A stretch of DNA of 64,000 nucleotides from Deltaproteobacteria bacterium (GCA_033763315.1 JANRKS010000006.1:32001-96000), one strand, 5' to 3'. Positions 6,328-46,003 are shown, counted from the first letter of the stretch. Made by a program: numbers and translations. Notes: a model not told the origin generated them from the sequence alone.

Positions 6328-6354
6328 GTCGCACCTCGCGGGCCTATCGGGTCA
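6328..6354 (-). promoter_or_regulatory. ECF-type promoter TGACCC-N17-CGAC (putative autoregulatory promoter of sigma 2)
   Basis: Minus strand TGACCC GATAGGCCCGCGAGGTG CGAC, 10 nt before GTG 6317. Confidence 0.7.
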
Positions 6355-6432
6355 AACGTCAACGACCACATCGGTCCTTGCTGCGGTGCGCTTAACGAGA
6401 GCAAAACAAAAGGTCAAGAGCCCCATTGCAAG

Positions 6433-6459
6433 TGACCCGCTCCGTCGTCCACATGCGAC
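6433..6459 (+). promoter_or_regulatory. ECF-type promoter TGACCC-N17-CGAC for the operon starting at 6529
   Basis: TGACCC GCTCCGTCGTCCACATG CGAC, divergent from the sigma-2 copy. Confidence 0.7.
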
Positions 6460-6528
6460 CTACGCATTTGCGCGGGAAACATGGCGCTTCGCTAGGCCCG
6501 TGGTTTGCAACCCTCCGAAAAATTCCCC

Positions 6529-7860
6529 ATGAAGTTCACACACCGCTCCTCGATTCTCTTTGCGGCGCCGATCGCTTGCTTCGTGACCTGCCTCGGCGCC
6601 TGCACAACTTCGAACACGTCGAACAGCGACGATGGCGGCGGCACAGGTGGCACAGACGAGCCGGCCCCGAACTCGTCCGGAGGAGGTGGAGCAAGTGGAG
6701 GAAAGGGAGGCAGTGGAGGCAGTGGAGGCCGTGGAGGAAGTGGGTCCCTTGGGGGGCAACCGACTGATGCCGGCGTTGGTGGAGCAACAGTGGCGTCGGG
6801 TTGGTGGGACAACGCTTGGCCGCTGCGAAGATCTCTGAGCGCTGATTGGCCGTCCGACTCTGCCTCGCAGGATCTGCCCGTTCTTGTGGCCTTGACGCCG
6901 CAGCAACTTGGCAGCGGCGGCTTGAGTCAAAAGGCGGCTGGCTTGCGTTTTGTCGCCAAGGACGGATCGCTCTTGCCGCACGAAGTGGACACGGTTTCTG
7001 ACACGCGCATCTTTGTGTGGGTTAAGCGGCCTCAAGGCAGCGACGCCTGGTGGCTGTACTACGGAAATCTCGCCGCACCAGCGCTGCCGAAAGCGCACGC
7101 GCAGGCGGTATGGGGCGCAGACAGCGTGGTGTGGCACCTCGGAGACAACGGCAACGAGTCGGGCCCGGGAGGGTTTGATGCCACAAATGAAGGTGGAAGC
7201 TTTGGGGAGGGTTTCATCGGCCGTGCCTACATGGGCGATTCGACCAAGCGCAGTAGTTTGGCTTTATCGCGCGAAGCCACCGCCAACAAGCGGCTGCTGG
7301 CCGGCGCGTCCGCGCTCACGATTTCCGCGTGGGTGAAACCAACGGATTTCAAGCTTCTCGGCGACAAGCCTTTTGATCGACAGGTCGTGTCCATCGGCAC
7401 CAGCAAAGCGGACTCGAATTACAACCACGCGGCGGCATTTTTGGCTGTGGGCCTCGAGAAAATGGGAAGCCCTGGCGGCGAGGTGGTGGCAGGCATACGT
7501 CCCACGGGCGATGAAGAGACGATTCGTTCGCCTGGGGCCGTATCGGCAAACACCTGGACGCATGTGGCAGCGGTTTTCGATCTAGCGCTCAAGCGCGGCC
7601 GGTTTTTCATTAACGGGGCGCCAAGCGGCGGTTGGATGAACCGGGGGGATATAGAAACCACGATGTTCGACGCTGCGTACGAATCAAAGTCAGCTCACAT
7701 CGGAGCAAGTGCGGGAGGCGGCTATGGGTATTTCGACGGTGGCATCGACGAAGTACGGCTTGAGCGACGCCAGCGTGACGAGACGTCGTTGCTCAACATG
7801 TACCTAAACATGAAGTCACCGGAAACCACCGTGAAGGTGGGGCCTGAAGACGCCCGATAG
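6529..7860 (+). CDS. lipoprotein with DUF2341-like and LamG/concanavalin-like domains
   Basis: Lipobox LGAC, Gly-rich tether, WWDNAW...LRFV...VWVK...LYYGN (DUF2341-like), TISAWVK...WTHVAAV...FDGGIDEVR (LamG). Confidence 0.8.
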   Translation: MKFTHRSSILFAAPIACFVTCLGACTTSNTSNSDDGGGTGGTDEPAPNSSGGGGASGGKGGSGGSGGRGGSGSLGGQPTDAGVGGATVASGWWDNAWPLRRSLSADWPSDSASQDLPVLVALTPQQLGSGGLSQKAAGLRFVAKDGSLLPHEVDTVSDTRIFVWVKRPQGSDAWWLYYGNLAAPALPKAHAQAVWGADSVVWHLGDNGNESGPGGFDATNEGGSFGEGFIGRAYMGDSTKRSSLALSREATANKRLLAGASALTISAWVKPTDFKLLGDKPFDRQVVSIGTSKADSNYNHAAAFLAVGLEKMGSPGGEVVAGIRPTGDEETIRSPGAVSANTWTHVAAVFDLALKRGRFFINGAPSGGWMNRGDIETTMFDAAYESKSAHIGASAGGGYGYFDGGIDEVRLERRQRDETSLLNMYLNMKSPETTVKVGPEDAR

Positions 7861-7941
7861 AAGTCCACCGCGTTGTGCGTTGCCTGTTGCCAATCAGCAA
7901 CAGACCGTTGGCTCGACCCAACACCCAAAAGAGGACGTTTG

Positions 7942-10002
7942 ATGCTAAAGGCGATCGGAAGAATCTTCGTGGCGTCACTGCTTGTGACGGCTTGTGGATC
8001 AAACTCACAGTCTGATGCGACGGATGACGGCCGCATGGACGATGCCGCGGGTGGGGCCGCTGGCTCGGGCGGCCAAGCGGGCTCACCAGGCCAAGGTGGC
8101 AGCGCAGGCCAGGCGGCCTCCGGTCAAGGCGGCAGTCCGTCGTCGCAGGCCGGAGCGGGGGGCGCCTCGTCGCCCGTGCCATCTTCGGTGGATCCCAAAG
8201 AAGGAAAATCGATATTCGAAACGCTTTTCGGTTTCGAGCCGCATTTTGTGGAGCCGCCCGATTCGGGCATGGCCAACATCAAACGTGATTTCGGCGCCAA
8301 GGGCGATGGCGTCAGTGACGACACGGGTGCGTTTAAGAGAGCCATTGAAGCGGATGAGCCGCGCACCATCTTCATTCCTCAAGGCACATACTTGGTGCGC
8401 GATCAGCTTCGTTATGGCGAGGCCGCAACGAAAAAGAAGCGCGTGTTGCTCATCGGCGAGAGCCGAACCCAAAGCATCATCAAGCTGGCCGATGGATCCC
8501 CGGGCTTTGCCAATCCCGCGAAGCCACGCGTGTTCATCCACACAAGGCCTTCCGCTCAGCAAGCTGAGCAGAATATGCACCACTACATTTATCATTTGAC
8601 CTTGGAGATCGGTCGCAACAACCCCGGTGCCATCGCGTTGAACTATCACACCAACAACTCGGGCACGGTCAAAGACGTCAGCATTCGAGCCTCTGATCCG
8701 TTGGGCCATCCGGGCCTCGTGGGCATCGCCTTCGATGACGTTTGGTTTGGGCCTGGTGGTGGCCGCTACATCGACATTGATGGCTTCAAAACGGGCGTGC
8801 TGATTGGCAGCGCACAAAACCACACGACGCTTGAGCACATCGTTGTGAAAAACTGTGAAACGGGCTTTCTCAATTCAGGCTACGGCGTAAGCGCACGCAA
8901 CTTGCGCACCGACAAATGTGCAACCGGCTTCCGCGCGAAAGGAGGATTGAGCGTGGTGGTGGGCGCGCAGTTCTCGAACGGCAGCGACGGCACGGCGATG
9001 GATCTGGGCCAAGGTCAAGCGCTGGTGCGCGATCTACGGAGCACGGGCTACAAAACGGCGATACAGGGCGCAACGAATACGGTGCCCGGGCCCGACGTAG
9101 CCGCGTGGACGTCAAGCGAAGCGCGTAGCAACTGGCCCATCGTTGGCCAACCGATGGTTCTACCCATCGAAGAAAGCCCAGAGCATCAGTATCCCCAAAC
9201 AGCCGCGCAGTGGGCCGTCGTTCCTTCCGCTGATGATATTGCGCCAAGCCTGCAGGCAGCCATCGATGCGGGTAAAGAAACCATTTACATTAAGGGCGGC
9301 CAAATTCGCAGCACGGTCGTGTTGCGCAACAAGGTCAAACGGATCATGGGCCTTGGCGTTCGGGTGATTGGGTTCATGACTGCTGACGCTCCGGCGTTCC
9401 GTATGGCGGCCGGTGATGACCACCCTGTCATCATCGAATTGATTTATTCCGCGTACGAGTCGAACGCAAAGTTCGCTCTGGAACACGCGGCGCCACGCAC
9501 ATTGGTGTTTCGCCACGGCTCGGCTTCTTATCGCAGCTTGCCTTCGGCGGCGGGGGCGCGCGTGTTTATGGAAAGCGTTGTGAGTTATCCGTTCTTGTTC
9601 AGCGGCGTTAACGCGTGGCTGAGGGACATAAACACCGAACAGGGCGGCGACCAGGTTCCGAACATCGTGAACAGCGGTGGAACGCTGTGGGTGCTGGGGC
9701 AAAAAACGGAAGACTACGCCACGAAACTGGCCACCAAGGACAACGGGCGAACCGAATTGCTGGGCGGCACATACCGCCAAAATTGGGACAGCGCAGACAA
9801 TGTGGGCCCGCTTTTAGACAACAACCCGCTGTTTGACATCGATAACGCGCGCGCCAGCCTTTCCTTCACAACGTGGGCAACCCACGCGGGGGCGCCCCCT
9901 TACAAGATTCTCGTGCGCGAGCGACGTGGCAACGACACGAAATTCCTGCTGAGCAGCGCCGCCCCGGGGACGCAGGCCCTGTTCGTGGGCAGCGGGCCCT
10001 GA
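7942..10002 (+). CDS. lipoprotein with pectate_lyase_3/GH55-like right-handed beta-helix (glycan-active enzyme)
   Basis: Lipobox VTAC, NIKRDFGAKGDGVSDDT...IFIPQGTY, and a second degenerate copy DDIAPSLQAAID. GAGGA RBS upstream of the start. Confidence 0.8.
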   Translation: MLKAIGRIFVASLLVTACGSNSQSDATDDGRMDDAAGGAAGSGGQAGSPGQGGSAGQAASGQGGSPSSQAGAGGASSPVPSSVDPKEGKSIFETLFGFEPHFVEPPDSGMANIKRDFGAKGDGVSDDTGAFKRAIEADEPRTIFIPQGTYLVRDQLRYGEAATKKKRVLLIGESRTQSIIKLADGSPGFANPAKPRVFIHTRPSAQQAEQNMHHYIYHLTLEIGRNNPGAIALNYHTNNSGTVKDVSIRASDPLGHPGLVGIAFDDVWFGPGGGRYIDIDGFKTGVLIGSAQNHTTLEHIVVKNCETGFLNSGYGVSARNLRTDKCATGFRAKGGLSVVVGAQFSNGSDGTAMDLGQGQALVRDLRSTGYKTAIQGATNTVPGPDVAAWTSSEARSNWPIVGQPMVLPIEESPEHQYPQTAAQWAVVPSADDIAPSLQAAIDAGKETIYIKGGQIRSTVVLRNKVKRIMGLGVRVIGFMTADAPAFRMAAGDDHPVIIELIYSAYESNAKFALEHAAPRTLVFRHGSASYRSLPSAAGARVFMESVVSYPFLFSGVNAWLRDINTEQGGDQVPNIVNSGGTLWVLGQKTEDYATKLATKDNGRTELLGGTYRQNWDSADNVGPLLDNNPLFDIDNARASLSFTTWATHAGAPPYKILVRERRGNDTKFLLSSAAPGTQALFVGSGP

Positions 10003-10060
10003 AAATATAGTTGAGCTCTGTCAATGCGATCCCGCGCGGCAATCGGGTGGAATAAGGAGC

Positions 10061-11827
10061 ATGGACTTGTCAGTGTCGTCCTTGTTCCGACGTGCGCGGC
10101 CCGCCGCCTACGCAACCTGGTTTGCTGTGTTGTCCCTCGCTGCTCAGGGTTGTTCCGCCTCCGCCGGGACCTCTGATGGGGACACTGACGACGGGGAAGG
10201 CGGACAATCGGGAGGCTCGGGAGGGGGAGGGGAAGGCGGGATCGTGGTTCCACCGCCGCCCCCGGGATGCGACGCGGTGGAGCCTCTTGCACCCACGGCT
10301 CGTCGGCTCACGCAAAGCGAAGTCATCAACTCGGTGAGGGACGTCCTGGGCGTCGTGTTGACGCCCCAGACGGCAGGCTTCGAGAAGGAAACCATCACCG
10401 GATTCTCGACGGACGTGGTTGCTCTCATTCCAAACTTCGAGTTTGTACGATCGAGCGTAACCCTCGGTGAGAAGGTGACGGCGAAGCTCACGGACCGCGC
10501 CGCCTTTGTGCAGAAGTTTGGTGGTTGCAACGAATACGGCGAAGCGTGCGAAACAAAGTTCGTGAAAGGCCTGGGCCTACGGTTGTTCCGACGACCTTTG
10601 GCGGACGAAGAGGTTGCGCGCTTTCGCAAAATCTTGGCCGATGCAAATCAACAGAAGATGCCGTTCGCGGAGGGTACGTCGTACGTCTTGCAAGCCATGC
10701 TCGGATCGGCAAGCTTTCTTTACCGGATGGAGCCCGAAGTGGGTGACGGCTCGTTCCGTCAACTCGACGACTACCAAATTGCGAGCCGCCTTTCGTTCGC
10801 GCTGTGGGCCACGTCGCCCGACGACGAGTTGATGAACAAGGCGCGAGAAGGAAAGCTAAAGAATGCAAGCGAGCGCGAAGCGCAAGTGGAACGAATGCTT
10901 AACGACAACCGCGCCAAGGAAGTCTTCGCCCGTTACGCCTCCGACTGGTTGGTGCTCGAACAAGCCGGGAAGATTCTTTACGACGAGAAGATGTATCCGG
11001 AGTACACGCCGGCCTTAGGCGCCCAGATCGTCGAAGAAACGAAAGCGTTTATCGACGCTTTCTGGGACGAAGGTTTGCCGCACAACGAGATCTACACAGC
11101 CAAGTTCGCGTTCGCCGATAAGAAGATGGCCGAGATCTATGGTTTCGAGAACCCCAAAGAGGGGCTTACGCGTTATGACCTGTCCAAGGATCCCCATCGC
11201 TTTGGCTTGCTCACTCAAGCCGCAATCCTTGGGCCTTCGGGGGTTCGCTCGACGGAGCCTGGAATCGTGTTTCGTGGCCAGTTCATCCTTAAGCGTTTTA
11301 TGTGCACCGAGCCTCCTGAGTTAACGCAAGAACTACGAGAATCACTGGGCGATCGAATCGCTGAGAACCTGCAGGTTGGCGAATCAAAGTCGCAGCGCTT
11401 CGCTGCCGAGGCTCGTAACTCTGGCGGCACTTGCGCCGCCTGCCACAGCACGTTTGATCCTTTGGCCTACGCCCTTGAGCCGTACGACAGCTTGGGTCGC
11501 CATCGCGAGCAGGACCGCTTCGGAAATAAACTGCGCACCGACGGCAAGTTCACGTCAAGCCTTGATTCAGAAGAGCGCTCGTTTGCGACCACCGAAGAAT
11601 TCGCAACAACCTTCGCGCAGCTGCCACAGACGCGGGCCTGCCTGGTCGCCAATGCCTTGCACTTCTTGGCAGGGCAAGCCATCCACATTGACGACGAGAA
11701 GCAGGGCTGCCTGGTTGAGTCCATCAAGAACTCGATGAGCAAGCCTGACGCCTCGTTCAAGGACTTGTTCCGCGCCATCGCTTTGCACCCTGCGAACCAG
11801 GGCTTCAAGACACTTGCGGCGCCGTAG
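10061..11827 (+). CDS. DUF1592/DUF1588-family heme-c lipoprotein (pair 1)
   Basis: RRLT..E..NS, FRRPL, IASRLSF.LW..PD, CAACH...DPL.Y.LE.YD..GR; lipobox AQGC. Confidence 0.9.
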   Translation: MDLSVSSLFRRARPAAYATWFAVLSLAAQGCSASAGTSDGDTDDGEGGQSGGSGGGGEGGIVVPPPPPGCDAVEPLAPTARRLTQSEVINSVRDVLGVVLTPQTAGFEKETITGFSTDVVALIPNFEFVRSSVTLGEKVTAKLTDRAAFVQKFGGCNEYGEACETKFVKGLGLRLFRRPLADEEVARFRKILADANQQKMPFAEGTSYVLQAMLGSASFLYRMEPEVGDGSFRQLDDYQIASRLSFALWATSPDDELMNKAREGKLKNASEREAQVERMLNDNRAKEVFARYASDWLVLEQAGKILYDEKMYPEYTPALGAQIVEETKAFIDAFWDEGLPHNEIYTAKFAFADKKMAEIYGFENPKEGLTRYDLSKDPHRFGLLTQAAILGPSGVRSTEPGIVFRGQFILKRFMCTEPPELTQELRESLGDRIAENLQVGESKSQRFAAEARNSGGTCAACHSTFDPLAYALEPYDSLGRHREQDRFGNKLRTDGKFTSSLDSEERSFATTEEFATTFAQLPQTRACLVANALHFLAGQAIHIDDEKQGCLVESIKNSMSKPDASFKDLFRAIALHPANQGFKTLAAP

Positions 11828-11868
11828 ACGACGAAACCATCCAGCCAGCGACTTTAAGGACAAAGACA

Positions 11869-13290
11869 ATGAAATACCGTCATGTACTGAGCCGGCGCAC
11901 GATGCTTCGCGGATTCGGAGGGGCAGCCATCGCTTTGCCCTTCCTGGACGAAATGCGTTCAAGCACGGCCTACGCGGCCGATGTGGCTCCGGCGTGTGTT
12001 ACGTACTTCTTCGGCAACGGCATACCGGTAAAGGCCTTCAATGGGGGCCTCACCGGACGGGTTGCACCGTTGAGCGAGATAGCGGCAAGGTCAGCGATTC
12101 ATGCCCGCGTGAACTTGACCAAATCTTTCCACGGCCCAGCGACGGAGGCGAGCCTTCGCGGCAAGGCCAATGCGGGCCCATCGATTGAACAGTACGTCAG
12201 GCACAAAAAGTATGCGGGCGGCGTGGTTCCGACGCGTTTGACCAACTTGTCGGCCGGCATCTACTGGCGCACCGATGAAGGTTACAAATACAAGCACAGC
12301 TTTGACATGAACGGGGACTCGATGGATACCAATCCACCGAGGTCGCTGAAGGCCATTTTCGACCGCCTGTTCGTAGGCTTTAAGCCGCCGGGAAATCCGG
12401 GCACTGACCCTGTGCCGACCCCTTCCGGTCCGAACCTGAAGCGCAGCGTGCTCGACGCCGTTGTTGCGGACTACAAGTTCTACACGTCTAGTGCGGGGAA
12501 CTTGGGCGCCACCAGCCGCGAACGTATCAAGTCGCATCTTGATCGTATTTACGAAGTCGAAAAAACTCTGCCGGGCCTGGACGCTCAGATGCAGAACGCA
12601 ACCAATCCCTCTGGGCCGCTTTCAGGCGGCTCTTCGAGCTGCAAAGTTCCCGCGGCCACGAACGAGGGACAACTTCCCGATCCCAATAACAATGGTGTGC
12701 CCCCCATCAGCCCGGATCTGATCGAGAGCTATTGGAAGAAGATGGTGGACCTTTATGCGATGGGGCTCCACTGCGACATCTTCCGTTTCGGCAATCTCAT
12801 GGCCAGCGGATCGGCGGAGCGAATCATCTTCAAGGGCTCGATGAACTACAACGGGCAAACCCGGTCTGTAAATCACGGCAAAAATGGCCATGATTATTGG
12901 CACGACTGGAGCCCGAGCAACAATTTTGCGCAGGAGCTTGAGGAGCACATCAACTTCGTGTGTAGGCAGATGGTCTTCTTCGTGAAGGCGCTTGACGACA
13001 AGGCTTACGTTCAGGCCAACGGCAAGACGTTTTGGGAGAATCAGCTCGTTGTCGTCACAACCGAACTCGACAACCACTCGAATATGGACCACGCCACGGA
13101 CAGGACGTTTCATCTCGTCTCCCCTGCGGGCGGCAAGATCAAGCCTGGTGTGCTGATGGCCGAAAGCAGTCCGCAGGTCACGTATGTGGACTTCTATGAA
13201 ACCCTGCTCAAGGGATTCGGCATTGAGAACCCGAGTGACTTTGGTCTTGCGTCTCAGCGCAAGGGACTGGCCACAGGCGTTCTTGCTTAG
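11869..13290 (+). CDS. DUF1552-family Tat-exported protein (pair 1)
   Basis: SRRTMLRG..LPFLDEM, RSVLD, HL..I..VE, CD..R, GHDYWH. Confidence 0.9.
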   Translation: MKYRHVLSRRTMLRGFGGAAIALPFLDEMRSSTAYAADVAPACVTYFFGNGIPVKAFNGGLTGRVAPLSEIAARSAIHARVNLTKSFHGPATEASLRGKANAGPSIEQYVRHKKYAGGVVPTRLTNLSAGIYWRTDEGYKYKHSFDMNGDSMDTNPPRSLKAIFDRLFVGFKPPGNPGTDPVPTPSGPNLKRSVLDAVVADYKFYTSSAGNLGATSRERIKSHLDRIYEVEKTLPGLDAQMQNATNPSGPLSGGSSSCKVPAATNEGQLPDPNNNGVPPISPDLIESYWKKMVDLYAMGLHCDIFRFGNLMASGSAERIIFKGSMNYNGQTRSVNHGKNGHDYWHDWSPSNNFAQELEEHINFVCRQMVFFVKALDDKAYVQANGKTFWENQLVVVTTELDNHSNMDHATDRTFHLVSPAGGKIKPGVLMAESSPQVTYVDFYETLLKGFGIENPSDFGLASQRKGLATGVLA

Positions 13291-13411
13291 CGCTAAACGC
13301 GACGGAACGCAGCCCACACACGTTTGTTCATTCACTCCAAAATTTCTTTAACGAAAACGCCTGCACGCGGCCTCCTACGAAGAACTTTAGTTTCTCTTGG
13401 AGGGAGTACGA

Positions 13412-14632
13412 ATGAAACGCTTGAAAAATGAATCCAGCCAATGTGTGAGGCCTTGTCGATTGTTGGCGATGGCCTTTATCGTAGGCGCGCTTGCTGCGGG
13501 TTGTGGTGGTGGGAGTGGGAGCGGAGGTGGCGATCCTGACAGCGGCGCCGGCAACATGGGTGGCGCAGGTCTAGAACCTGGGGCCGGGGGATCACCCGGA
13601 ACGGGTGGCAACGCCAACGTGGCAGGATCGCCGGGTCAAGGCGGCGACAACCCGGACGGAGGCGAGAATACCAGCGACGCAAGCGTTGGCGCGGGCGGAA
13701 GTCCTGGTATGGGTGGCGCGCCCGGCATGGGAGGCTCTGGCTCGGGCGGAACGGGTGGTGCAGCGCCTGCGTGCGGTGCCGTCGGACAGCCTTGCTGCGC
13801 CAACGACGCTTGCAACACAGGCGCAGCATGCGATGAACGACAAGGCCCAGACATTTGCGTGGCATGTGGACAACCTGGTGGCCCATGCTGTGAGGGCAAC
13901 GCATGCGGAGGCGGTGGCTGTTGTATCGACGACGCGTGTATCGCCAGCGGCCAAGCTTGCACGGATGGCATCGACGGTGTGTGCACGGCTGGCGCTTGCG
14001 TGGAAGGCACACAAAAATGCGGTGGCCAAGGCGACGCTTGTTGCGATGGCGGGACCTGTACGGCCAGTGGTTTGGGCTGCATCCAGGGCATGTGTCAAGC
14101 CTGCGGCGGGGCCGATCAACGATGCTGTGGCGGCCAAGCTAACAGTTGCAACAATGGCCTAAGCTGTCAGGGTGCCGGCGGTGGCCAACCTCCGTTGTGC
14201 AAACCATGCGGAAAGACGGGCCAGGCGTGTTGTGGCGGCTTTGGAGGAAGCTGCGAATCGGGGAACCGTTGTGCACAAAACAATGGCGCCAGCGTCTGCC
14301 AAGCCTGTGGTGGCGCAGGGCAGGCGTGTTGTGGCTTTCAGCGTACGTGTGGAACCGGTCTTCGCTGTGGCGGCTCGGGCGAACAAGAGGTTTGCCAGCC
14401 CTGCGGCACCGAGGGAACCGCTTGTTGTGGCACGGGTGCAAATCGCACGTGTGGCGCAGCGTTGGCTTGTCGCCAAGTGCAAGACGCTTTGACCTGCGTT
14501 AAGTGTGGGGCACAAGGCGAAGCTTGCTGCGGCTCCGGTCTGACTGGTGACATGTGCAATCAAGGCCTCACGTGCGGCTTCTCGCAGAATGGCCGTACAT
14601 GCCGACCTGCCATGATGTCCGTTATGCCGTAG
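13412..14632 (+). CDS. Cys-rich repeat lipoprotein (about 8 CGxxGxxCC units)
   Basis: Lipobox AAGC, Gly-rich tether, tandem six-Cys repeats; GGAGGGAG RBS before ATG 13412. Confidence 0.8.
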   Translation: MKRLKNESSQCVRPCRLLAMAFIVGALAAGCGGGSGSGGGDPDSGAGNMGGAGLEPGAGGSPGTGGNANVAGSPGQGGDNPDGGENTSDASVGAGGSPGMGGAPGMGGSGSGGTGGAAPACGAVGQPCCANDACNTGAACDERQGPDICVACGQPGGPCCEGNACGGGGCCIDDACIASGQACTDGIDGVCTAGACVEGTQKCGGQGDACCDGGTCTASGLGCIQGMCQACGGADQRCCGGQANSCNNGLSCQGAGGGQPPLCKPCGKTGQACCGGFGGSCESGNRCAQNNGASVCQACGGAGQACCGFQRTCGTGLRCGGSGEQEVCQPCGTEGTACCGTGANRTCGAALACRQVQDALTCVKCGAQGEACCGSGLTGDMCNQGLTCGFSQNGRTCRPAMMSVMP

Positions 14633-14855: not shown

Positions 14856-14922
14856 TAACTAGCGTTCCTAGGTTCGGCGGTTGATTGGCCGTTCAACCAA
14901 GCCCACTGAAGGAGTTCAAGCA

Positions 14923-36633: not shown

Positions 36634-36703
36634 GCCGTGCGGCGCCTGAGGACCGACAACGGGAGCCGGGCTCGGCCGTGCGGTCTTTCAGACGCATCAG
36701 TCA

Positions 36704-36845
36704 CCTAAGCGGCAACAGGGTTGTCCCTGAGCGCAGCCAGAGCCGCGTCGGCCGCTGGGGGCAGGACGGTGGCCGCGAGGCCGAGCACGGCCGCAAACCC
36801 CTGAGGTGGCGCGGTCGCTCTGATCCCCTACAACATCTCGACGCG
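36704..36845 (+). repeat. about 142-bp direct repeat, copy 1
   Basis: Aligns colinearly with 39450..39590 (CCTAAGCGGCAAC...CCGCTGGGGGCAGGACGG...ACAACATCTCGA). Confidence 0.9.
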
Positions 36846-37149: not shown

Positions 37150-37620
37150 CTATTTGCCCCTCTGTTTGACGGCCCGCTTCAGCACAACCAGATCTGCGAG
37201 ATCTTGGGGCCGCGCCCAGAAGGTTTTCTCCGCAATTAGATCGTCGAGCGAAAGATAGTGAGCGTCCACCGTGCCGAAGCGTGACGTCACTCGTCGCGTC
37301 CAGGCATCCGCAAATCGCTTAATGGAACCAAAACTCGAGACAATGTCGATGCGTACTGGTGCCACACCCAATTGCACGATGGTATCGGGATTGCGCAAAT
37401 ATTCCGCGCTCGCAAACTTTGGGCTCGTTCCCCCAAAGAATTTGCCAATCGCCCTGACCGTGCGTTCCGCATTCGCGCGCGATGGATCTATGAACACATC
37501 CAGGTCCTTAGTAGCCCGTGGACGGGCATGAAAAGCCAACGCGTGTGCGCCGCCTATGAGGTACCTAACCCGCTCTTCGTTTAGCGAGACGAGAAACTCT
37601 TCGAAATCTGGGTGCGCCAT
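37150..37620 (-). CDS. nucleotidyltransferase (Pol-beta-like, DUF6036-type)
   Basis: YLIGGAHA..H..PRATKDLDV, C-terminal K...RPQDLADL. Confidence 0.85.
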   Translation of the reverse strand: MAHPDFEEFLVSLNEERVRYLIGGAHALAFHARPRATKDLDVFIDPSRANAERTVRAIGKFFGGTSPKFASAEYLRNPDTIVQLGVAPVRIDIVSSFGSIKRFADAWTRRVTSRFGTVDAHYLSLDDLIAEKTFWARPQDLADLVVLKRAVKQRGK

Positions 37621-38397: not shown

Positions 38398-39396
38398 GTG
38401 AAGATCATCGATCATCTTAAAAGCGTCCAGCCCGGCGTCACGGTGCTTGAGATGGATTTTGCAACCAAGACCGAAAGGCAAATCGATCCATCAGAGATTG
38501 CGCCCGGGATCGCCGCCGGCCGGTTTGTTTGGATCGACGTTCAAGGCGAAGTCGAGGAGTCGCGCGCGCTTTTGCGACGCCTCGATTTGCTTGACGATGA
38601 CACCATCGAGAGCTGCTTGCGCTGTGAGCCTGCCGTGCACTACGAGAGGCACGAAAGCCACCTGAACTTATTGGTGTGCACTTATACCGGTGAGCTCCAG
38701 GGCAGCCTTGCGCTAGAACGACTTAGCGCCACCCTAAGCGAAAACTATCTCGTTACGTTCCATCAGGTCCCATCACCCCTCGTTCGCTCAGTGAGGGCAA
38801 ACTACCGCAGCGACTTCCTTCGGTTCGCGCAGACGCCCAGCTTCTTGATTTACGAGCTATGGGACCAAGTTCTTGATCGCTTCTTGCAGGCACAGAAGAT
38901 CATGGGTGACCACGTGGAGCGATTGCAACTTGAGCTGCACACTATGAACGTCGATGATGCGTTCTTCCAACGGCACGCGGTGTTGTCTTCCCAACTCCTG
39001 CACTTTCGGACCCTGTTGCTTCCCACGCGCACGGTGCTGTGCGATATGGCGACCCGTCGTTCAGCATTACTCTCCGAAACAACCCAGCGCTTCTTGTTGA
39101 ACATGGTCGGCACGGTAGACCACTTGATAGAAGACATGCTCGCGGATCGCGACATCCTTTCGAATTCGTTGAACCTTCACATGTCCATGACGGCTCATCG
39201 CACAAGCCGAGTGATGCACCGCTTAACCTCGGTGAGCTTTGTCTTTCTCCCGTTGACGTTTCTCGTGGGCGTGTACGGAATGAATTTTCGCGTTTTGCCA
39301 GAACTCGAATGGCGGTACGGATACGCCTACTTTTGGGCCGTAACCGCCAGCCTAACGCTCGTGATCAGCTTCTTTTTGAGACGCACCCGCCTTTAG
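38398..39396 (+). CDS. corA: CorA-family Mg2+/divalent cation transporter
   Basis: FLPLTFLVGVYGMNF..LPELEWRYGY signature with two C-terminal TM helices. Confidence 0.9.
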   Translation: MKIIDHLKSVQPGVTVLEMDFATKTERQIDPSEIAPGIAAGRFVWIDVQGEVEESRALLRRLDLLDDDTIESCLRCEPAVHYERHESHLNLLVCTYTGELQGSLALERLSATLSENYLVTFHQVPSPLVRSVRANYRSDFLRFAQTPSFLIYELWDQVLDRFLQAQKIMGDHVERLQLELHTMNVDDAFFQRHAVLSSQLLHFRTLLLPTRTVLCDMATRRSALLSETTQRFLLNMVGTVDHLIEDMLADRDILSNSLNLHMSMTAHRTSRVMHRLTSVSFVFLPLTFLVGVYGMNFRVLPELEWRYGYAYFWAVTASLTLVISFFLRRTRL

Positions 39397-39449
39397 ACCG
39401 ATCCGTGACCCGGCGCCAAACCCAGCCCGCGCCTCAGCCGTATCGCTCT

Positions 39450-39590
39450 CCTAAGCGGCAACGTTGTTATCACTGAGCGCAGCCAAAGCCGCGTAGTCCG
39501 CTGGGGGCAGGACGGCGGCCGCGAGGCCGAGCACGGCCCAAACCTCTGTTGTGGCGCGGTCGCTCTGATCCCGGACAACATCTCGATGCG
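39450..39590 (+). repeat. about 141-bp direct repeat, copy 2 (second hemerythrin 3' remnant, frameshifted)
   Basis: Minus strand reads EMLSGIRATAPQQRF, then a 1-nt deletion, then AVLGLAAAVLPPADYAALAALSDNNVAA*. Confidence 0.85.
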
Positions 39591-39654: not shown

Positions 39655-41337
39655 TTAACCCCCGCCCGCTGGCACTTCTGCGAACAGCCTGCTTTTCGTT
39701 GTTTGAAGCAGCAACTCACGGAAGGTCCCCTCTTTGCGGAGGCTGGTTTTGAGCGCTTGCACCGCGGCTTCGTCGCCGCTCGTCTCAAGCCGCCCGAACG
39801 CAAACCGGAACCATTGCTTTGCCCAGCAAGCCGCTGCGTCGTCGCTGTTTACCAGCTTCTGTGCCAGCTCTGTCACGCCCGTGAATTTCCCCAGGTCGGT
39901 ATCCACCGCTTCACCGGTGGCGTCGATCGGCTTGCCATGTTCGGTTGTGCGGTGCTGCCCCATGGCGTCGTATTCCTCAAAAGCGAAGCCAATGGGATCC
40001 ATAAGGCGGTGGCAACCCGTGCACTGCGGGTTGTTGTTGTGCGCCGTATGATGCTCACGCGTTGTCTGATCCGGCGGCGCCAGGCCGATCATTACGTTCA
40101 CATCGGGAGGCGGAGGAGGCAACGTGCCGCACAGAAGCTGCTCCCGAATATAGCGCCCGGTAAAAGTCGGTGAAGTTGAATTGAAACCCGAGTGGCTGGC
40201 CAGCATACCGCCTTGGGTGAGGATGCCCGCGCGACGTTTGGGATCGTCTAGTTCCACCTTCTTGAACGCTGTGCTGCCCGGCTTGCTAGCCCCATAGTAA
40301 GGCGCCAGATCGTCGTTCACAAACACGTAGCCGGCTGTGAAAAGGTCGGAGACTTTTCCCTCGGCCGCCACGTGCGCAGCAAAGGCTTCTGCACCCTTGC
40401 GCAGCAAATCAGCGTAATCGTTGTTCCATTTGGGGAAGGTCTTGGGATCCTTGGCGGCGGTTGAAATTTTTGAAAGCTCCAACCACTGCTTGTTGAAGGC
40501 CGCGAAGGTGCGTTTGGCCTTCCCATCGGAAAGCATGCGCTGCGCCTGCGCCGCGATTTGCGCTTCGGTTGTAAGCTTGTTGTCTGCCGCCGCAGCGAAT
40601 AGTTCCTCGTCGGGAAGGCTTTTCCATATCAAGTACGAAAGCCGAGAGGCCATCTCCCACGACGTGGCTGTGCGTGCTTTATCGCCCACTTGTTCAACCC
40701 TGTAGAAGAACGGAACAGAGATAAGCAACGACTGCGCCGCCATCTCAATCCCCTCCAAGAAGGTTTCGCCTTTTTCAAAAACACCCATCAGGCGATCAAT
40801 CTCTTCGGCAGCCAAGGGCCTGCGCCACGCGCGCCTGCCAAACCCTTCGATCACCTTGCGGGCACAATCGGTCGAACCGCCCCCGGAGGCGCAGCTGTTC
40901 CAGGTTGAAGCCTTTGCGGCGGCTGCTTTGGCCAACTGTGCAGAGGCGGCCAACGACTGTTCGGCCAGCACACCAGGAAATGACAACGCCGATCCGTTGT
41001 TGTCGAAGCCCTTCACCTTTTCCTCAACGGGAAACGACTGTGCCGGCGTCAAGGGCGCGCCAAGCATGTCCGAAACTGTGTTGTCGTATTCCTCGCGCGT
41101 TAGCCTGCGCATCACGAAGGCCGCGGCGGGACAATCATCAGCGTTCTTGCAATCAGTAGGATTAGGCTGCGTGCTTTGACCGCCGCTTTGGTTGCCGCCC
41201 GAACCGGATTCACCACCTGCGCCACCGCTGCTATCGCCACCGGTTTTGTCACTGTCTACGGTGCCCGTGCATGCGGCCAAGCCCGTTGCAACGGCCAGCG
41301 CAAACACAACTTTGCAGTTACGACTAACGGCTTTCAT
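39655..41337 (-). CDS. DUF1592/DUF1588-family heme-c lipoprotein (pair 5)
   Basis: Lipobox LAAC, MRRLTREEY, EMASRLSY, TSPT, CTGCH. Confidence 0.9.
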   Translation of the reverse strand: MKAVSRNCKVVFALAVATGLAACTGTVDSDKTGGDSSGGAGGESGSGGNQSGGQSTQPNPTDCKNADDCPAAAFVMRRLTREEYDNTVSDMLGAPLTPAQSFPVEEKVKGFDNNGSALSFPGVLAEQSLAASAQLAKAAAAKASTWNSCASGGGSTDCARKVIEGFGRRAWRRPLAAEEIDRLMGVFEKGETFLEGIEMAAQSLLISVPFFYRVEQVGDKARTATSWEMASRLSYLIWKSLPDEELFAAAADNKLTTEAQIAAQAQRMLSDGKAKRTFAAFNKQWLELSKISTAAKDPKTFPKWNNDYADLLRKGAEAFAAHVAAEGKVSDLFTAGYVFVNDDLAPYYGASKPGSTAFKKVELDDPKRRAGILTQGGMLASHSGFNSTSPTFTGRYIREQLLCGTLPPPPPDVNVMIGLAPPDQTTREHHTAHNNNPQCTGCHRLMDPIGFAFEEYDAMGQHRTTEHGKPIDATGEAVDTDLGKFTGVTELAQKLVNSDDAAACWAKQWFRFAFGRLETSGDEAAVQALKTSLRKEGTFRELLLQTTKSRLFAEVPAGGG

Positions 41338-42755
41338 GTCAGCAACTCCGTGATGGGTCCCGTGCTCTTGTCGGCGTCGCCAAACGTCGTCAGATTCACC
41401 CCCATGGCCTTCGCCAGTGTGAGATGTAGATCATTGAAGCGTCTGGTTTTGCCACCACCGTTATACTGGTGAGCCAAACGAACGTGCCGGCCAGCCCGCA
41501 GTGTGCCGCCTCCTGAACCAGCGATAAGGATCGGACAGCTGCGTGCTGTGTGTGCCCCACCGTGGTTCATCGAGGTCAAGAACACGGCCATCATGTCGTC
41601 GAAGGCACCAAAATCTTTGAGTCGTTGAACCAACACGCCAAACTGTTCCAGGCTCCATTTGGCCACAGCCCGCCACCCCTCCGCGTACTTCGCTTGTTCG
41701 GGCCATTTGCCCTCTTGTGCCTCGAAGTGCGAGGCGTCGTGCCACCGCCACGAGGGCAATCCGATCCAAGGGAACGTGAGGTTGTTGGCTTCGGTTCCAA
41801 ATTGGAAGGTGCCGATGCGTGTAAGGTCGCATGCAAAAGCCATCGCCATCAGATCGATCTGCTGCTTCATGATGAAGGGCGTGTCCTCGATCGCTTCAAG
41901 TTCGTCCCCATCGTACAAGCCTTTGCCGTGTGAAGGGCTGATGGAGCTGGTTTTCTCTGGTGGGTTGCATCCCTGCTGGGCGCCCGTGCCCAACCGGCTT
42001 TCTAGTTCGCGAAACGAAGTGAGGTATTGATCAACCTTGGCTTTGTCTGCCGCACCAAGCTTCGCCTTCAACCCGTTGGCCTGCGACAAAGCCGCGTCCA
42101 AAACCGATTGCTTCTTTGCGCGGAGCTTCTGCGCCTGGCCCGGATCCGCTGACACATCGGCAAACACGCGCTCCCAAAGCTTGATCGGGTTGTCGGTGGC
42201 AGGAACCGCCTGCGATTTCGATAGCCAGGAGATCGCCTGCCCTTGATTCGAGCCACCGTTGTGCACCCCCGCATGCATCGTCTTAAAGCGCGTGCTTGGA
42301 TTCAACTTCTGCGCAATCACCTGATCGATGGAGATCATGTTGCTTGGTGACTTTTCGTATGTGTCGGTGCCCGTCAAGGTTGTGCTGTACGCGGGATGGT
42401 TTCCACCCGAGTTGTCTAACCCCTCAACGAACGTCAGTTCGCTACGATGAGGCTCGAGCGCCTTGAGCATCTCGGGCAGCACATATTTGTCGTTGTCCAT
42501 CGCGCCCGGTCCGCTCCACGCGATTTCCCTCATCGGATCCGTGCGGTAGTTGTACTCTTTGGCTCCAGGTGCGGCCGGCCAAAAGACGTCGGCGTAGATT
42601 GAAAGCGGCTGCATCCAAAACAGCAGTTTTTTTGCGGGGGCTGCCTGGGCTTGTTTTCCCAAGGGCGTCATGGCCTCCAAGAAGGGCAAGGCCAAGGAGA
42701 AGCCGGCGCCACCGCGTAGCAGGGTTCGTCGAGACAGAGAAGGCGTACGTTTCAT
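41334..42755 (-). CDS. DUF1552-family Tat-exported protein (pair 5)
   Basis: SRRTLLRG..LPFLEAM, QSVLD, ACDLTR, WHDASH. Confidence 0.9.
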   Translation of the reverse strand: MKRTPSLSRRTLLRGGAGFSLALPFLEAMTPLGKQAQAAPAKKLLFWMQPLSIYADVFWPAAPGAKEYNYRTDPMREIAWSGPGAMDNDKYVLPEMLKALEPHRSELTFVEGLDNSGGNHPAYSTTLTGTDTYEKSPSNMISIDQVIAQKLNPSTRFKTMHAGVHNGGSNQGQAISWLSKSQAVPATDNPIKLWERVFADVSADPGQAQKLRAKKQSVLDAALSQANGLKAKLGAADKAKVDQYLTSFRELESRLGTGAQQGCNPPEKTSSISPSHGKGLYDGDELEAIEDTPFIMKQQIDLMAMAFACDLTRIGTFQFGTEANNLTFPWIGLPSWRWHDASHFEAQEGKWPEQAKYAEGWRAVAKWSLEQFGVLVQRLKDFGAFDDMMAVFLTSMNHGGAHTARSCPILIAGSGGGTLRAGRHVRLAHQYNGGGKTRRFNDLHLTLAKAMGVNLTTFGDADKSTGPITELLT

Positions 42756-42797
42756 GAAGATGTGTCCTTTCGTGACGGAAGGCCGTTACACCAAGTG

Positions 42798-44513
42798 CTA
42801 GTTACTCAAGGCGCGCTTCCAGAATGCGGGGTCTGAAAATCTGCGCACCAATCCCCCTCGTACCCCCTCATTTCGGAGATCCTCCACAAACGCTGCGTCC
42901 GCCGCACACGATCCTCCCTCCTGCAAGCCGCGACCTGCGATGAATGCTTCGAGTTTGCGCGCGAAACATGTGTGCGCGCGAGGCTGTTCAAGCACAACCT
43001 TGGCAAGACCGCGTGCGCCTTCGAAACTGAACTTTTGGTCGCCTTCCGCCAGGAAACCTGTGACGTCCAGCGATTTCTTCGCTCGCGCGTCCGTGGTCCG
43101 GTAGGCGCCGACACCATCAAACTTTTCAAGGCCGAAGCCCAAGGGATCCATAAGGTCGTGGCACAGGGCGCATCGTGGATTCTCGGCGTGAGCCACCAAG
43201 CGCTCGCGATGGGTCAGCACGCCGTCGGGCGGCAACGGAAACGCATTGACGTCTGCGGGGGGCGAAGGCAATTCATCGCAAAGCAGTTGCTCCCTCACAA
43301 AGCGACCGCGACGAATGATGTCGGTATCATTTTGCAAGCCGTGCGTGGCAAGGAACGCGCCTAACGTCAAAAGACCAGAGCGGCCCTGTGCGGCCGTGTC
43401 CGCCTTGGCCCATGTTCCATCATCCGCACCACCCTGCAGTCCATAAAATGTTCCCAGACGTTTGTTCAAAAAGGTGTGCGGCGCTGTTAGCAAGGTCTCC
43501 AAGCGTCCATCGCCGCGCCAAATAGCCTCTTTCACGAACGCTCTGAACTCGGACAACATGTCCGCGCGGATGTCGTTTGTGAATTTCGGATACGTCCCTT
43601 CATCCTTGGCAACCGACGTCACCGCTTGCACGTCCATGGTCTCATCGAAATACCTCTGCAGCGCGCCGCCAGCCTCCGCGGCCGCCAGCAACCGCGTTGC
43701 TTGCTTGGCCAAGCCTTCCTTCGAATCCAATTCGCCCTTCTTTGCAGATTCGAGAAGCTCAGCGTCGGGTGGCGAATCCAATAGGGTAAAAGATAAAAAC
43801 GAGGCCTTCTCGTATCCCGTCAGCTCCACCTTGCCGCCATCGGCCTTCGCGCCTAACTCGAATCTGAACAGTGTGTTGGGCGAGAGCAGGATGGCTTGGG
43901 TCAGCTGACGAAACGCCACGTCTGCGCCGTCGATCGCCTTTTCGGCGCTGTAATAGCTCACGTAACTGTCCACCTCTTCAGACGTTGGAGGCCGACGAAA
44001 GGCCTTGAGCGCCAGGCGTTCGATGGCCTGCTTCACGCAATCGTTCGATGGTGCGCCTTCCAAACAAGCGTTGATTGACTTGCGCGCCGTAAACACCGCG
44101 CTGGCCTGCGTTCCCAGCTTGTCCACCAGTGCTTCGACGTGCGGCACGGTGAGCGCCAATCCCGAAGCGGTGCCACGATCGGTAACAAACGGCTCAAGCG
44201 CCTTGGCCACATCTTTGGCGCCTGTGTTCACCGTCTTGAGCACATTCTCAAGCTGAACAGGCGTGAGCCGCCAAAGCCGTTGTGGCAACGGGCCACAAGC
44301 GTTCATCTCATCAGGCGTGCCGGAGCCGCCTGCAGCGTTTCCTCCGCGGCCGTTCGATCCACCGCTCGATCCCCCATCGCCTTTGCCGTCGTCCTGATCA
44401 TCATCGCCTTGCCCTGTTTGATTGCCTATAGAGCCTGTGCAAGCCACGAACGCGATGAGACACAGGGCAAATGTGGTGCGGACGGTCTGCGCGAATAATG
44501 TGACGTGGCTCAT
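42798..44513 (-). CDS. DUF1592/DUF1588-family heme-c lipoprotein (pair 6)
   Basis: Lipobox FVAC, AFRRP, EKASFLSF, IIRRG, CALCH. Confidence 0.9.
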   Translation of the reverse strand: MSHVTLFAQTVRTTFALCLIAFVACTGSIGNQTGQGDDDQDDGKGDGGSSGGSNGRGGNAAGGSGTPDEMNACGPLPQRLWRLTPVQLENVLKTVNTGAKDVAKALEPFVTDRGTASGLALTVPHVEALVDKLGTQASAVFTARKSINACLEGAPSNDCVKQAIERLALKAFRRPPTSEEVDSYVSYYSAEKAIDGADVAFRQLTQAILLSPNTLFRFELGAKADGGKVELTGYEKASFLSFTLLDSPPDAELLESAKKGELDSKEGLAKQATRLLAAAEAGGALQRYFDETMDVQAVTSVAKDEGTYPKFTNDIRADMLSEFRAFVKEAIWRGDGRLETLLTAPHTFLNKRLGTFYGLQGGADDGTWAKADTAAQGRSGLLTLGAFLATHGLQNDTDIIRRGRFVREQLLCDELPSPPADVNAFPLPPDGVLTHRERLVAHAENPRCALCHDLMDPLGFGLEKFDGVGAYRTTDARAKKSLDVTGFLAEGDQKFSFEGARGLAKVVLEQPRAHTCFARKLEAFIAGRGLQEGGSCAADAAFVEDLRNEGVRGGLVRRFSDPAFWKRALSN

Positions 44514-45922
44514 GCGTAAACCTCTTGCAGTGGGCCCTTGTTGATACGTGGATCGCCAAACGAGGTTACGTCCGCCCCCACCGCGCGGGCTATCGACACA
44601 AAGAAATCGGATACGGAATGGACGGGGTGCTCTTTGTTGATCTGCGGCTTGAAGCCGGAGTCCCCAGGGGTCACGAGGGTCATGCGTGGGTCGCCGCTTG
44701 TGATCTTGCTGGTGGGAAGTTGAACGAGACGCCCTGTTTTCAAGGCACCTTTGAGATCGCCCACGGTGATAAACAGATAGTCGCTTTGCCCGCCATGATG
44801 TTGGCCGCCCGAGTTGTTCATGAAAACAATGAGCGTGCTATCCGCTAACGTTCCGCTGCCATCGGATATGCGCTCCAATTGCCCCCGAAGGTAGGCCATG
44901 CTCTTCGCGGAATAGTTGTGGAATGCCTTGTGGTGCTCCATAGTCGCGCCGCCGTGCCACATGCCGTGCTGCCCTGGGTAGTTGGGCTTTCCCTCGCTGT
45001 TGTGCCAAACGCCTAAGAAGGGCATGCCTCCCGTGTTGTGGGCGATCACGCCGACCTGGGTGAAGCCGCACCCCATCGCCTGTGTCATGATGTCGGCGAT
45101 CACCTGCGGCCGATCTGGGTTGGCATACTTCCCTTTCAGTGCGGCGGGATCGGGCGCTTTGGGCGATGTGCAAGAAAGTTGAGCGGTTGCAACGTCCTTG
45201 AGCTTCGCTTCGATCTCGCGCAAGGACGTCATATACTGTTCAAGCTTGGCCTTCTCTGTTGACGCCAGGTTGTTTGAGGCCTTCTTGATATCGGAGACCA
45301 CGAAATCAAGCAGGCTCTTCTTCTGCCGCAAAAGCGCGGCCGCAGCGCCCTGGTTGCCGCCCGCAGGATCAGCCGGTGTGGTTTTGCCGAAGATCGAAGC
45401 GAAGGCGGCTACGGGATCTTGTTGGATGGCGAACGGAGCCAAGGGGCCATCGCTGCTGTAAGTGAGGGAAAAGTCGTCGTCCTCATCACCCGGCCAAACG
45501 GCCAAGTTGATCGAAGATATGGGGGCGTCTTTGCCCGCTGTTTTGGCGATGACGCGGTCGATTGAAGGGCCAAGCGGTGCCGTTTTGACACCTTCAAGCG
45601 GCTTTCGATCCATGGCGGTGAGTGGCCATAGGTTTCCGTGCAAGTGGTGCCCGAAGGGGTTGTACATGTGCTGCACAACCGTCGTTTGTGACTTGTAAGG
45701 GTCAAGCGGCGAAAACCCCTTCAAATCAAGACCCCCGCCGGAGGCCACCGGACGCATCTCGTCCGTAATGCCGATGCGATCAATGAAGAAGATGACGCGC
45801 CGTTTGGTGGTGGTGGCGCCCATCGCGGGCCGGATGGCCTGCTTTAGCATGGGGGAAAGAAGCCAGGCGCCCGCGCCAAGGCCCATCGCGGAAACAAAAC
45901 CTCTTCGTTTGAGAAGATACAT
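44510..45922 (-). CDS. DUF1552-family Tat-exported protein (pair 6)
   Basis: KRRGFV, SIDRVIA, KSLLD, GQHGMWH, GQHH; start inferred at ATG 45922. Confidence 0.85.
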   Translation of the reverse strand: MYLLKRRGFVSAMGLGAGAWLLSPMLKQAIRPAMGATTTKRRVIFFIDRIGITDEMRPVASGGGLDLKGFSPLDPYKSQTTVVQHMYNPFGHHLHGNLWPLTAMDRKPLEGVKTAPLGPSIDRVIAKTAGKDAPISSINLAVWPGDEDDDFSLTYSSDGPLAPFAIQQDPVAAFASIFGKTTPADPAGGNQGAAAALLRQKKSLLDFVVSDIKKASNNLASTEKAKLEQYMTSLREIEAKLKDVATAQLSCTSPKAPDPAALKGKYANPDRPQVIADIMTQAMGCGFTQVGVIAHNTGGMPFLGVWHNSEGKPNYPGQHGMWHGGATMEHHKAFHNYSAKSMAYLRGQLERISDGSGTLADSTLIVFMNNSGGQHHGGQSDYLFITVGDLKGALKTGRLVQLPTSKITSGDPRMTLVTPGDSGFKPQINKEHPVHSVSDFFVSIARAVGADVTSFGDPRINKGPLQEVYA

Positions 45923-45976
45923 CTTCGATTTTTTCTCCGGCAAGTGTGGAAGCGGCCAATGCTCGAGTAAGCAAGT

Positions 45977-46003
45977 GTCGCGGCCGGAGCCAAAGAAGGG
46001 TCA
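45977..46003 (-). promoter_or_regulatory. ECF-type promoter TGACCC-N17-CGAC for the pair 6/pair 5 operon
   Basis: Minus strand TGACCC TTCTTTGGCTCCGGCCG CGAC. Confidence 0.7.

Follow-up and report, generated by a model that had tools for sequence, protein, structure and literature searches.

In a 64,000-nt stretch of a Deltaproteobacteria bacterium assembly (GCA_033763315.1, JANRKS010000006.1:32001-96000; hereafter the window, with positions counted from its first base), a 27-bp bipartite motif, TGACCC-N17-CGAC with one CCAC variant, stands before the gene for sigma 2, a sigma factor of the extracytoplasmic function (ECF) type, and before four gene runs that carry pairs of DUF1592-family and DUF1552 genes (Table 1). 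We consider it very probable that these five sites are ECF-type promoters. Sigma 2 itself is, on the sequence comparisons presented here, the probable reader of the sites, an assignment that we make with clearly less assurance.

All counts refer to this one window, which has a G+C content of 59.3%. A first-pass annotation of the DNA had listed four exact copies of TGACCC-N17-CGAC together with a TGACCC-N17-CCAC variant at 32222..32196 (-), all placed upstream of starts in the correct orientation and including two divergent pairs. Each of these copies was found; all five are intergenic and aimed at the nearest gene start, and sites 1 and 2, like sites 3 and 4, are divergent. The annotation's estimate of about 0.2 chance matches was close to the shuffle mean of 0.18 for the exact motif, and no dinucleotide shuffle out of 100 gave four matches. 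When the second box was relaxed to CNAC, five matches were obtained against 0.54 expected, a number that was again reached in 0/100 shuffles. The N17 spacer is constant at 5/5 sites, and the boxes extend to TTGACCC at 4/5 and to GCGAC at 3/5 of them.

The motif was chosen post hoc and the LamG/DUF1592/DUF1552 operons are paralogous, so that a chance pattern, or a functionless relic of duplicated operon heads, has to be considered. When all 6mer-N15..19-4mer patterns were counted across 30 oriented upstream regions (4,477 nt), TGACCC-N17-CGAC came top with four hits, and only 1 of 1000 dinucleotide shuffles of these regions contained any such pattern with at least four hits. A looser control covering both strands of all intergenic DNA produced some pattern with four hits in 14/300 shuffles; here a second real pattern also had four hits, two of its copies lying inside a 158-nt repeat. 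The motif count survives correction for the post hoc choice. Beyond the boxes, the flanks and spacers of the five sites show pairwise identities of only 15-56%, about random, and the sites are therefore not duplicated promoter DNA. One of them stands before a sigma gene with no relationship to the operon heads, and an orthologue of that gene at 64% identity still has the boxes. With the start-codon geometry added (five genes observed versus 0.04 expected, see below), chance or relic DNA becomes a very improbable account of the motif.

The distance between motif and start codon is narrowly defined at several sites. From the last C of the CGAC or CCAC box, the start codon follows after 10, 9 and 9 nt at sigma 2, the DUF1592 gene of pair 3 and the LamG gene at 32347, respectively, and the T of TGACCC lies 36-37 nt before the start codon at these three of the five sites. 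A distance of 36-38 nt also applies before the sigma-3 gene and before the open reading frame (ORF) 62051..62692. A sense TGACCC occurs within 120 nt upstream of 7/45 genes, and in five of the 45 genes its T is located 36-38 nt before the start, compared with 0.04 expected when the -10 box is ignored and 0.17 when the higher intergenic frequency of TGACCC is used in the same test. Lipoprotein signal peptides starting at residue 1 pin down the gene starts at 32186 and 32347. If the final C of the -10 box is taken as the flipped base, the predicted +1 is the A of the ATG at both 32186 and 32347, and lies 1 nt before the GTG at 6317. Under this assignment the start codon falls at +1, and three of the five transcripts, those of sigma 2, of the pair-3 DUF1592 gene and of LamG 32347, would be leaderless or carry a 1-nt leader. 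Leaderless cases among predicted ECF promoters have been described in the accessible part of Todor et al. 2020 (PMC7776599).

Copies of TGACCC as such are frequently intergenic in this window (14/37), although intergenic DNA makes up only 5,709 nt (8.9%) by the gene map. Of these 14 copies, eight do not belong to any of the seven candidate promoter sites, and all but one of the eight are oriented away from every start. One near-match, TTGACCC-N16-GGGAC at 55545..55572 (+), was rejected as a regulon member, as it is directed at the 3' end of 55624..56541, a minus-strand gene; another TGACCC is present nearby at 55483 (+).

Sigma 2 contains only regions 2 and 4 and is about 200 residues long, which places it, by domain content, with the ECF (group 4) members of the sigma-70 family. 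It scores 73.3 bits against TIGR02937 (cut-off 42.9), and only the ECF superfamily model is above cut-off in NCBIfam. The closest solved relatives are RpoE, SigE and SigH. Within the accessible part of the ECF Hub classification (Casas-Pastor 2021, PMC7826278), no named group fits sigma 2. The sigma-2 family comprises 935 proteins at E<=1e-10, mostly from Myxococcota where named, and the named relatives of the window's sigma factors are assigned to Myxococcota, Polyangiaceae or Polyangiales. Close relatives of sigma 2 in the protein collection number only three (P0005 at 89% identity, P0006 at 64% and P0007 at 56%), the next being 46% identical.

An alignment of sigma 2 with E. coli RpoE (1or7_A) places Arg and Ser at the Arg171 and Ser172 positions and Asp at the position of Asn84, and all three residues are invariant in the three sigma-2 orthologues. 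According to Dataset S3 of Todor et al. 2020 (PMC7776599), Arg at 171 goes with C at -31 (share 0.88), Ser at 172 with G at -34 (share 0.83) and Asp at 84 with CG at -13/-12 (0.62, the top CG share of the 20 residues). The G and the fifth C of TGACCC have the required distance of three positions, and the -10 box starts with CG. The box bases hence agree with the G, C and CG predicted from the sigma-2 residues, if the RpoE numbering is mapped onto the boxes in this way. At site 3, where -12 is C instead of G, the promoter is probably weak.

This agreement also bears on whether the motif might instead be a transcription-factor site, or an unusual housekeeping promoter of the sigma-70 type with a TTGACC -35 box. 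TTGACC does resemble the sigma-70 -35 hexamer TTGACA, and TGACCC is enriched in intergenic DNA generally. Yet the hexamers found 17 nt past TTGACC (GCGACT, GCGACC, GCCACC, ACGACT and GCGACA) are far from TATAAT, and a consensus scan of the motif-bearing intergenic regions found no sigma-70-type promoter. The boxes lack dyad symmetry, while the constant 17-nt spacer and the distance of 9-10 nt to starts fit a promoter for leaderless mRNA and not an operator; moreover, the sigma-2 residues predict exactly the G..C and CG of the boxes. We therefore regard a transcription-factor or housekeeping site as improbable, and ECF-type promoters as the better description.

A trace of the sigma-2 promoter can be read in the orthologues. 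In the over-long ORF calls of P0005 and P0006, FDPI-x4-AT-x3-V precedes the true sigma start; TTTGACCC(N)AT...GCGAC(N), translated in frame, yields these residues, and its distance from the start is unchanged. Between the two boxes the residues vary (GPRG, GLRH and CRSP), and further upstream the sequences are unrelated. The records of P0007 and of sigma 2 from the window itself begin downstream of this stretch. The footprint gives partial, though position-specific, evidence for a conserved promoter. Together with site 1, it points to an autoregulatory bipartite promoter before the sigma-2 gene.

A second module in the same window, that of sigma 3, offers a comparison. TGACCC-N17-TCTC, or in full TGACCC-N16-GTCTCC, was found twice against 0.07 expected (0/100 shuffles gave two), and with one mismatch allowed in the 12-base form, two hits were reached in 9/100 shuffles. 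One copy precedes sigma 3; the other precedes ORF 62051..62692, the first gene of a same-strand run that ends with sigma 3 and its tetratricopeptide repeat (TPR) partner. The pair looks like sigma 3's own set of promoters. The helix ETVRSRLRLAR is common to sigma 2 and sigma 3, and sigma 3 has the same Arg/Ser as sigma 2 but an Arg at the Asn84 position. Its different -10 box fits this Arg, as the CG share for Arg at 84 is only 0.045 (Dataset S3, PMC7776599). The TPR domains of the two membrane proteins encoded downstream of the sigma genes are likewise homologous (36% over 112 residues, E 3e-11). As both the sigma factors and their TPR partners are homologous, the window holds two paralogous sigma/anti-sigma modules, with a common -35 box and different -10 boxes.

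The sigma-3 module is relevant to the alternative that another ECF (sigma 1, sigma 3 or an unseen Myxococcota paralogue) reads the five sites, with sigma 2 a mere target in a sigma cascade. Sigma 3 shares this helix and the TGACCC box, but it has a TCTC box of its own and the Arg at 84 disfavours CG. In sigma 1, the 171/172/84 positions are occupied by Lys/Arg/Ser. These residues are compatible with C at -31 and with CG at -13/-12, and a near-match to the motif is found before the sigma-1 gene; nonetheless, the Arg found where RpoE has Ser172 does not favour G at -34, a base that is invariant in the sites. As for paralogues elsewhere, the size of the sigma-2 family means that many are to be expected in the rest of the genome. 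Nevertheless, an exact copy of the motif with leaderless geometry immediately precedes sigma 2, and the ORF calls of the orthologues retain it. On this evidence, a different ECF as the reader appears unlikely, and the first-pass proposal that sigma 2 drives the regulon is probably right, supported as it is by geometry, orthologue footprint, specificity residues and the contrast with sigma 3.

Several observations weigh against sigma 2 as the reader of a five-site regulon. The pair-3 site has CC at -13/-12, for which the share under Asp is only 0.015 (Dataset S3), and the specificity mutagenesis was derived from other ECFs and tested in E. coli. The orthologue footprint is read through amino acids only, fixing 4/6 and 3/4 of the box bases. 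Sigma 1, with its compatible residues at two of the three positions, is preceded by TTGAGCC-N17-GCGAC at 3599..3627 (-), about 110 nt before the TTG at 3488. This near-match, with one mismatch and a spacer 1 nt longer than in the main motif, may represent a promoter for sigma 1 or a weak target of sigma 2. The near-match at 55545 (+) is wrongly oriented, and no motif site was found for pair 2 with up to two mismatches in the 12 box positions, where a terminator scan was uninformative. The spacing of the boxes is 1-2 nt longer than in the RpoE reference. Finally, the analysis covers only 64 kb of a genome in which paralogues of this large family are expected.

In 80 distantly related or unrelated loci from other genomes (1.2 Mb), the exact motif was present once, inside long ORFs of locus L029. 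A further point against our reading is that the best sigma-2 relative in genome contigs is only 39% identical (80 loci, sigma-2 alignment search), and that TGACC was found at a comparable place in 0/16 Myxococcota-type paralogue loci, with one loose match at -169 in L004. A tblastn search with 11 window proteins located a DUF1592/DUF1552 pair near an ECF gene in 1/80 loci, L065. There, a Myxococcota metagenome-assembled genome encodes on one strand (L065:2306..10505) an ECF, two unknown genes, a methyltransferase, a DUF1592-family protein, a DUF1552 protein and an RCC1-repeat gene. The L065 ECF is 32% identical to sigma 2 and no common motif was derivable from the locus's two upstream regions; the linkage is weak support for the regulon.

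The gene that follows sigma 2 encodes a putative anti-sigma factor with one membrane helix and a periplasmic TPR domain. No anti-sigma Pfam domain was detected in its product, which has three homologues at 89%, 43% and 42% identity. A complex of sigma 2 with residues 1-68 of the partner was modelled with a score of 0.84, as opposed to 0.00 for the best of three controls; the mark applied to this score is passed by 58/80 solved complexes and 2/110 mismatched pairs. Three runs had at least 80% of contacts in common with a partner pLDDT (predicted local distance difference test) of at least 69, and the modelled contacts of the partner fall on both sigma domains. Sigma/anti-sigma complexes have already been solved, and the pass may reflect likeness to them. 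The protein models as a putative anti-sigma partner, in the sense of likeness rather than proof of binding. An anti-sigma-like TPR part also directly follows the ECF match in loci L001 and L004. For the closest relative, sigma 2, the anti-sigma and LamG protein 1 each have an orthologue from a contig of 43,589 nt, which suggests, short of proof, that their linkage is conserved. The third gene of the sigma-2 operon has a C-terminal part with a weak likeness to small outer-membrane beta-barrels, which we treat as a lead only. Searches of Pfam and NCBIfam found no FecR or TonB-dependent receptor domain in either 4843..5670 or 3750..4871, and the domain content accordingly does not match trans-envelope signalling by a FecI/FecR/TonB-dependent transducer.

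Taken together, RNA polymerase with sigma 2 would read a promoter composed of a -35 TTGACCC, a 16-nt spacer and a -10 GCGAC. Sigma 2 would be kept inactive by the membrane-spanning anti-sigma (4843..5670) with its periplasmic TPR domain until an envelope or extracellular cue frees it. Freed sigma 2 would then boost its own transcription and fire the four promoters nearby; these would supply two operons headed by LamG genes plus another three DUF1592/DUF1552 units. Provided that the same-strand runs are operons, five of the six pairs would belong to the regulon. We infer four elements of this scheme: sigma 2 rather than a paralogue as the reader, the extents of the operons, release from the anti-sigma and the nature of the signal. 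A wider proposal, which we regard as a serious possibility short of probable, is that of a Myxococcota ECF family with a common -35 TGACCC and private -10 boxes (GCGAC for sigma 2, GTCTCC for sigma 3) dictated by whichever residue occupies the RpoE Asn84 position. Its transcripts would be mostly leaderless, and sigma 2 would be a dedicated PSCyt3-PSD/DUF1552 switch tied to an envelope- or glycan-sensed signal via the TPR anti-sigma.

Table 1 Promoter-like sites, sigma modules and DUF1592/DUF1552 gene runs in the window.
Feature	Position	Strand	Description
Promoter-like site 1	6328..6354	-	TTGACCC-N16-GCGAC, 10 nt before sigma-2 GTG 6317; putative autoregulatory promoter
Promoter-like site 2	6433..6459	+	GTGACCC-N16-GCGAC, 69 nt before LamG ATG 6529; divergent from site 1
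Promoter-like site 3	32196..32222	-	TTGACCC-N16-GCCAC, 9 nt before DUF1592 ATG 32186 (pair 3)
Promoter-like site 4	32311..32337	+	TTGACCC-N16-ACGAC, 9 nt before LamG ATG 32347; divergent from site 3
Promoter-like site 5	45977..46003	-	TTGACCC-N16-GCGAC, 33 nt before DUF1552 TTG 45943 or 54 nt before ATG near 45922
ECF sigma 2, 216 aa	5667..6317	-	Sigma70_r2 and Sigma70_r4_2 (Pfam); inside longer ORF 5667..6404
Putative anti-sigma factor	4843..5670	-	67-residue cytoplasmic N-terminus, one membrane helix, periplasmic TPR (YbgF/BamD-like)
Third gene of sigma-2 operon	3750..4871	-	Signal peptide; C-terminal part weakly like small outer-membrane beta-barrels
ECF sigma 1	2811..3488	-	Pfam; TTG start 3488
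ECF sigma 3	58817..59452	-	Pfam; 37% identical to sigma 2; module 58062..59452
Sigma-3 TPR partner	58062..58820	-	Homologous to sigma-2 partner
TGACCC-N17-TCTC comparator	59464..59490	-	11 nt before sigma-3 ATG 59452
TGACCC-N17-TCTC comparator	62702..62728	-	9 nt before ATG 62692 of ORF 62051..62692
Operon-like run	6529..14632	+	LamG lipoprotein, beta-helix protein, DUF1592/DUF1552 pair 1, lipoprotein of unknown kind
LamG protein 1	6505/6529..7860	+	Pfam
Pectate-lyase-like beta-helix protein	7873..10002	+	Pfam
Pair 2 (DUF1592 family and DUF1552)	14881..18077	+	248 nt downstream of pair-1 run, same strand; no motif of its own, possible member
Pair 3	29069..32186	-	DUF1592-family lipoprotein, DUF1552 with twin-arginine translocation (Tat) signal
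LamG lipoprotein and pair 4 (DUF1592 family, DUF1552)	32347..36633	+	LamG protein 2 at 32347..33411
Pairs 6 and 5	39655..45943	-	DUF1552-DUF1592-DUF1552-DUF1592, gaps -4, 42 and -4 nt

Pfam identifies three ECF sigmas, two LamG proteins, one pectate-lyase-like beta-helix protein (PF12708 being its only match) and six DUF1592-family/DUF1552 pairs in the window, in agreement with the gene content described in the first-pass annotation. The pairs consist of a DUF1592-family protein (PSD3/5/4, PSCyt3 and PSD2) and a DUF1552 (HXXSHH) protein, all above the Pfam gathering scores. Targets include lipoproteins with glycine-rich linkers and DUF1552 proteins with Tat-like RR signals. Further glycan-related proteins recognised by Pfam in the window are a GH115_C/Big_7 and an FG-GAP/RGL11-like protein. 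Operon extents were inferred from strand and spacing, and pair 3 is followed on the same strand by genes at 27499..28902, 26145..27425 and 24712..25965. The earlier claim that the motif links sigma 2 to five of the six pairs depends on these assumed operons. The members of the regulon may also have the shared inducing signal that the first-pass annotation proposed.

Start and stop codons overlap by four bases at 33408..33411 (LamG protein 2 and DUF1592 of pair 4), and at 41334..41337 and 44510..44513 (DUF1552/DUF1592 of pairs 6 and 5), which suggests translational coupling. Between pair 2 and the FG-GAP/RGL11-like gene, the segment 18148..22377 (-) encodes two PAS histidine kinases, of which one is a hybrid carrying two receiver domains; through them the cluster might receive a second regulatory input. 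A direct repeat of about 158 nt (36688..36845 and 39434..39590, 87-88% identical) flanks a 2.7-kb segment between the ends of pairs 4 and 5 that contains a small ORF (37150..37620) and a CorA gene (38398..39396). Rfam gave no hits at the gathering threshold in the window, repeat included.

Gene pairs of this kind are numerous. A search with one DUF1552 protein as the query retrieved 7,367 cluster representatives at E<=0.001. The DUF1552 protein of pair 5 (41334..42755, -) was modelled on 100 of the 150 representatives listed, with a pLDDT of 87.0 and a predicted template modelling (pTM) score of 0.85. The best PDB matches of this model are sulfatases and other members of the alkaline-phosphatase superfamily (E 1.3e-6 to 1e-3), with TM scores of only 0.30-0.42, and PDB sequence searches with DUF1552 and DUF1592 gave no hits. 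No N-terminal CxPxR motif is present among the conserved DUF1552 columns. We did not adopt an assignment as sulfatase and read the modelled fold as distantly alkaline-phosphatase-like only.

The accessible part of He et al. 2017 (PMC5615132) reports that PSCyt3-PSD genes usually adjoin a gene of an unknown family and lie near Laminin_G_3 and pectin-lyase-like genes; it describes their function as wholly unknown and names no regulator. In the literature searched, we found no paper naming DUF1592 and DUF1552 together, nor one that combines PSCyt with ECF and sigma, and papers with either DUF alone contained nothing on regulation in the parts examined. The finding is chiefly of value as a regulatory handle on the DUF1592/DUF1552 (PSCyt3/HXXSHH) pairs, via sigma 2 and its putative 27-bp promoter. 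If true, these widespread 'planctomycete-specific' systems would thereby gain their first assigned regulator. The periplasmic domain of the anti-sigma hints at where the inducing cue is sensed, and the co-regulated LamG, beta-helix and Tat-exported DUF1552 proteins suggest an extracytoplasmic, glycan-related task. The contrast between sigma 2 and sigma 3 would provide a natural example of the published ECF specificity code.

E. coli RpoE-RseA and B. subtilis SigW-RsiW are autoregulated modules of an ECF and a membrane anti-sigma. The sigma-2 module resembles them in having a sigma with r2 and r4_2 domains, a bipartite promoter before the sigma gene and a single-pass partner whose N-terminus is modelled between both sigma domains, and sigma 2 shares with RpoE the Arg/Ser at the 171/172 positions. 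The SigW promoter, TGAAAC-N16-CGTA, has a box layout similar to that of the sigma-2 sites. In contrast to RpoE and SigW, the sigma-2 sites have TGACCC and CGAC as boxes, set 1-2 nt further apart, the partner has a periplasmic TPR and no recognised anti-sigma Pfam domain, and the targets are secreted lipoproteins and Tat substrates of unknown function, as opposed to envelope repair. Three of the sigma-2-site transcripts also appear leaderless, unlike those of RpoE and SigW.

Local autoregulated ECF regulons and leaderless ECF promoters are already known, and the mechanism proposed here is in this respect ordinary. Todor et al. 2020 (PMC7776599), in the part accessible, found ECF promoters via autoregulation and divergent neighbours, and described 'local' regulons near the sigma gene. 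Sigma 2 is similar to these 'local regulator' ECFs in its autoregulatory motif, divergent neighbours, few promoters located near its own gene and predicted leaderless transcripts. The terms TGACCC, Myxococc, Sorangium and Polyangi are absent from the readable supplements of that paper, a set that does not cover Datasets S1 and S2 or the supporting information (SI) PDF.

Polysaccharide utilisation loci of Bacteroidota contain ECF/anti-sigma pairs as well. As in those loci, an ECF and a membrane anti-sigma are found here beside genes for secreted glycan-related proteins: LamG proteins like carbohydrate-binding modules (CBM), a beta-helix protein, GH115_C/Big_7 and FG-GAP/RGL11-like proteins. They differ in that no SusC/TonB-dependent transducer or FecR domain was detected by Pfam in our case. 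The gene pairs themselves correspond to the 'planctomycete-specific cytochrome c' pairs (PMC5615132, accessible part), with PSD3/PSD5/PSD4/PSCyt3/PSD2 beside DUF1552 and with Laminin_G_3 and pectin-lyase-like neighbours. Unlike the pairs described there, those of the window occur in a Myxococcota-like genome and are preceded by a common ECF-type promoter-like site.

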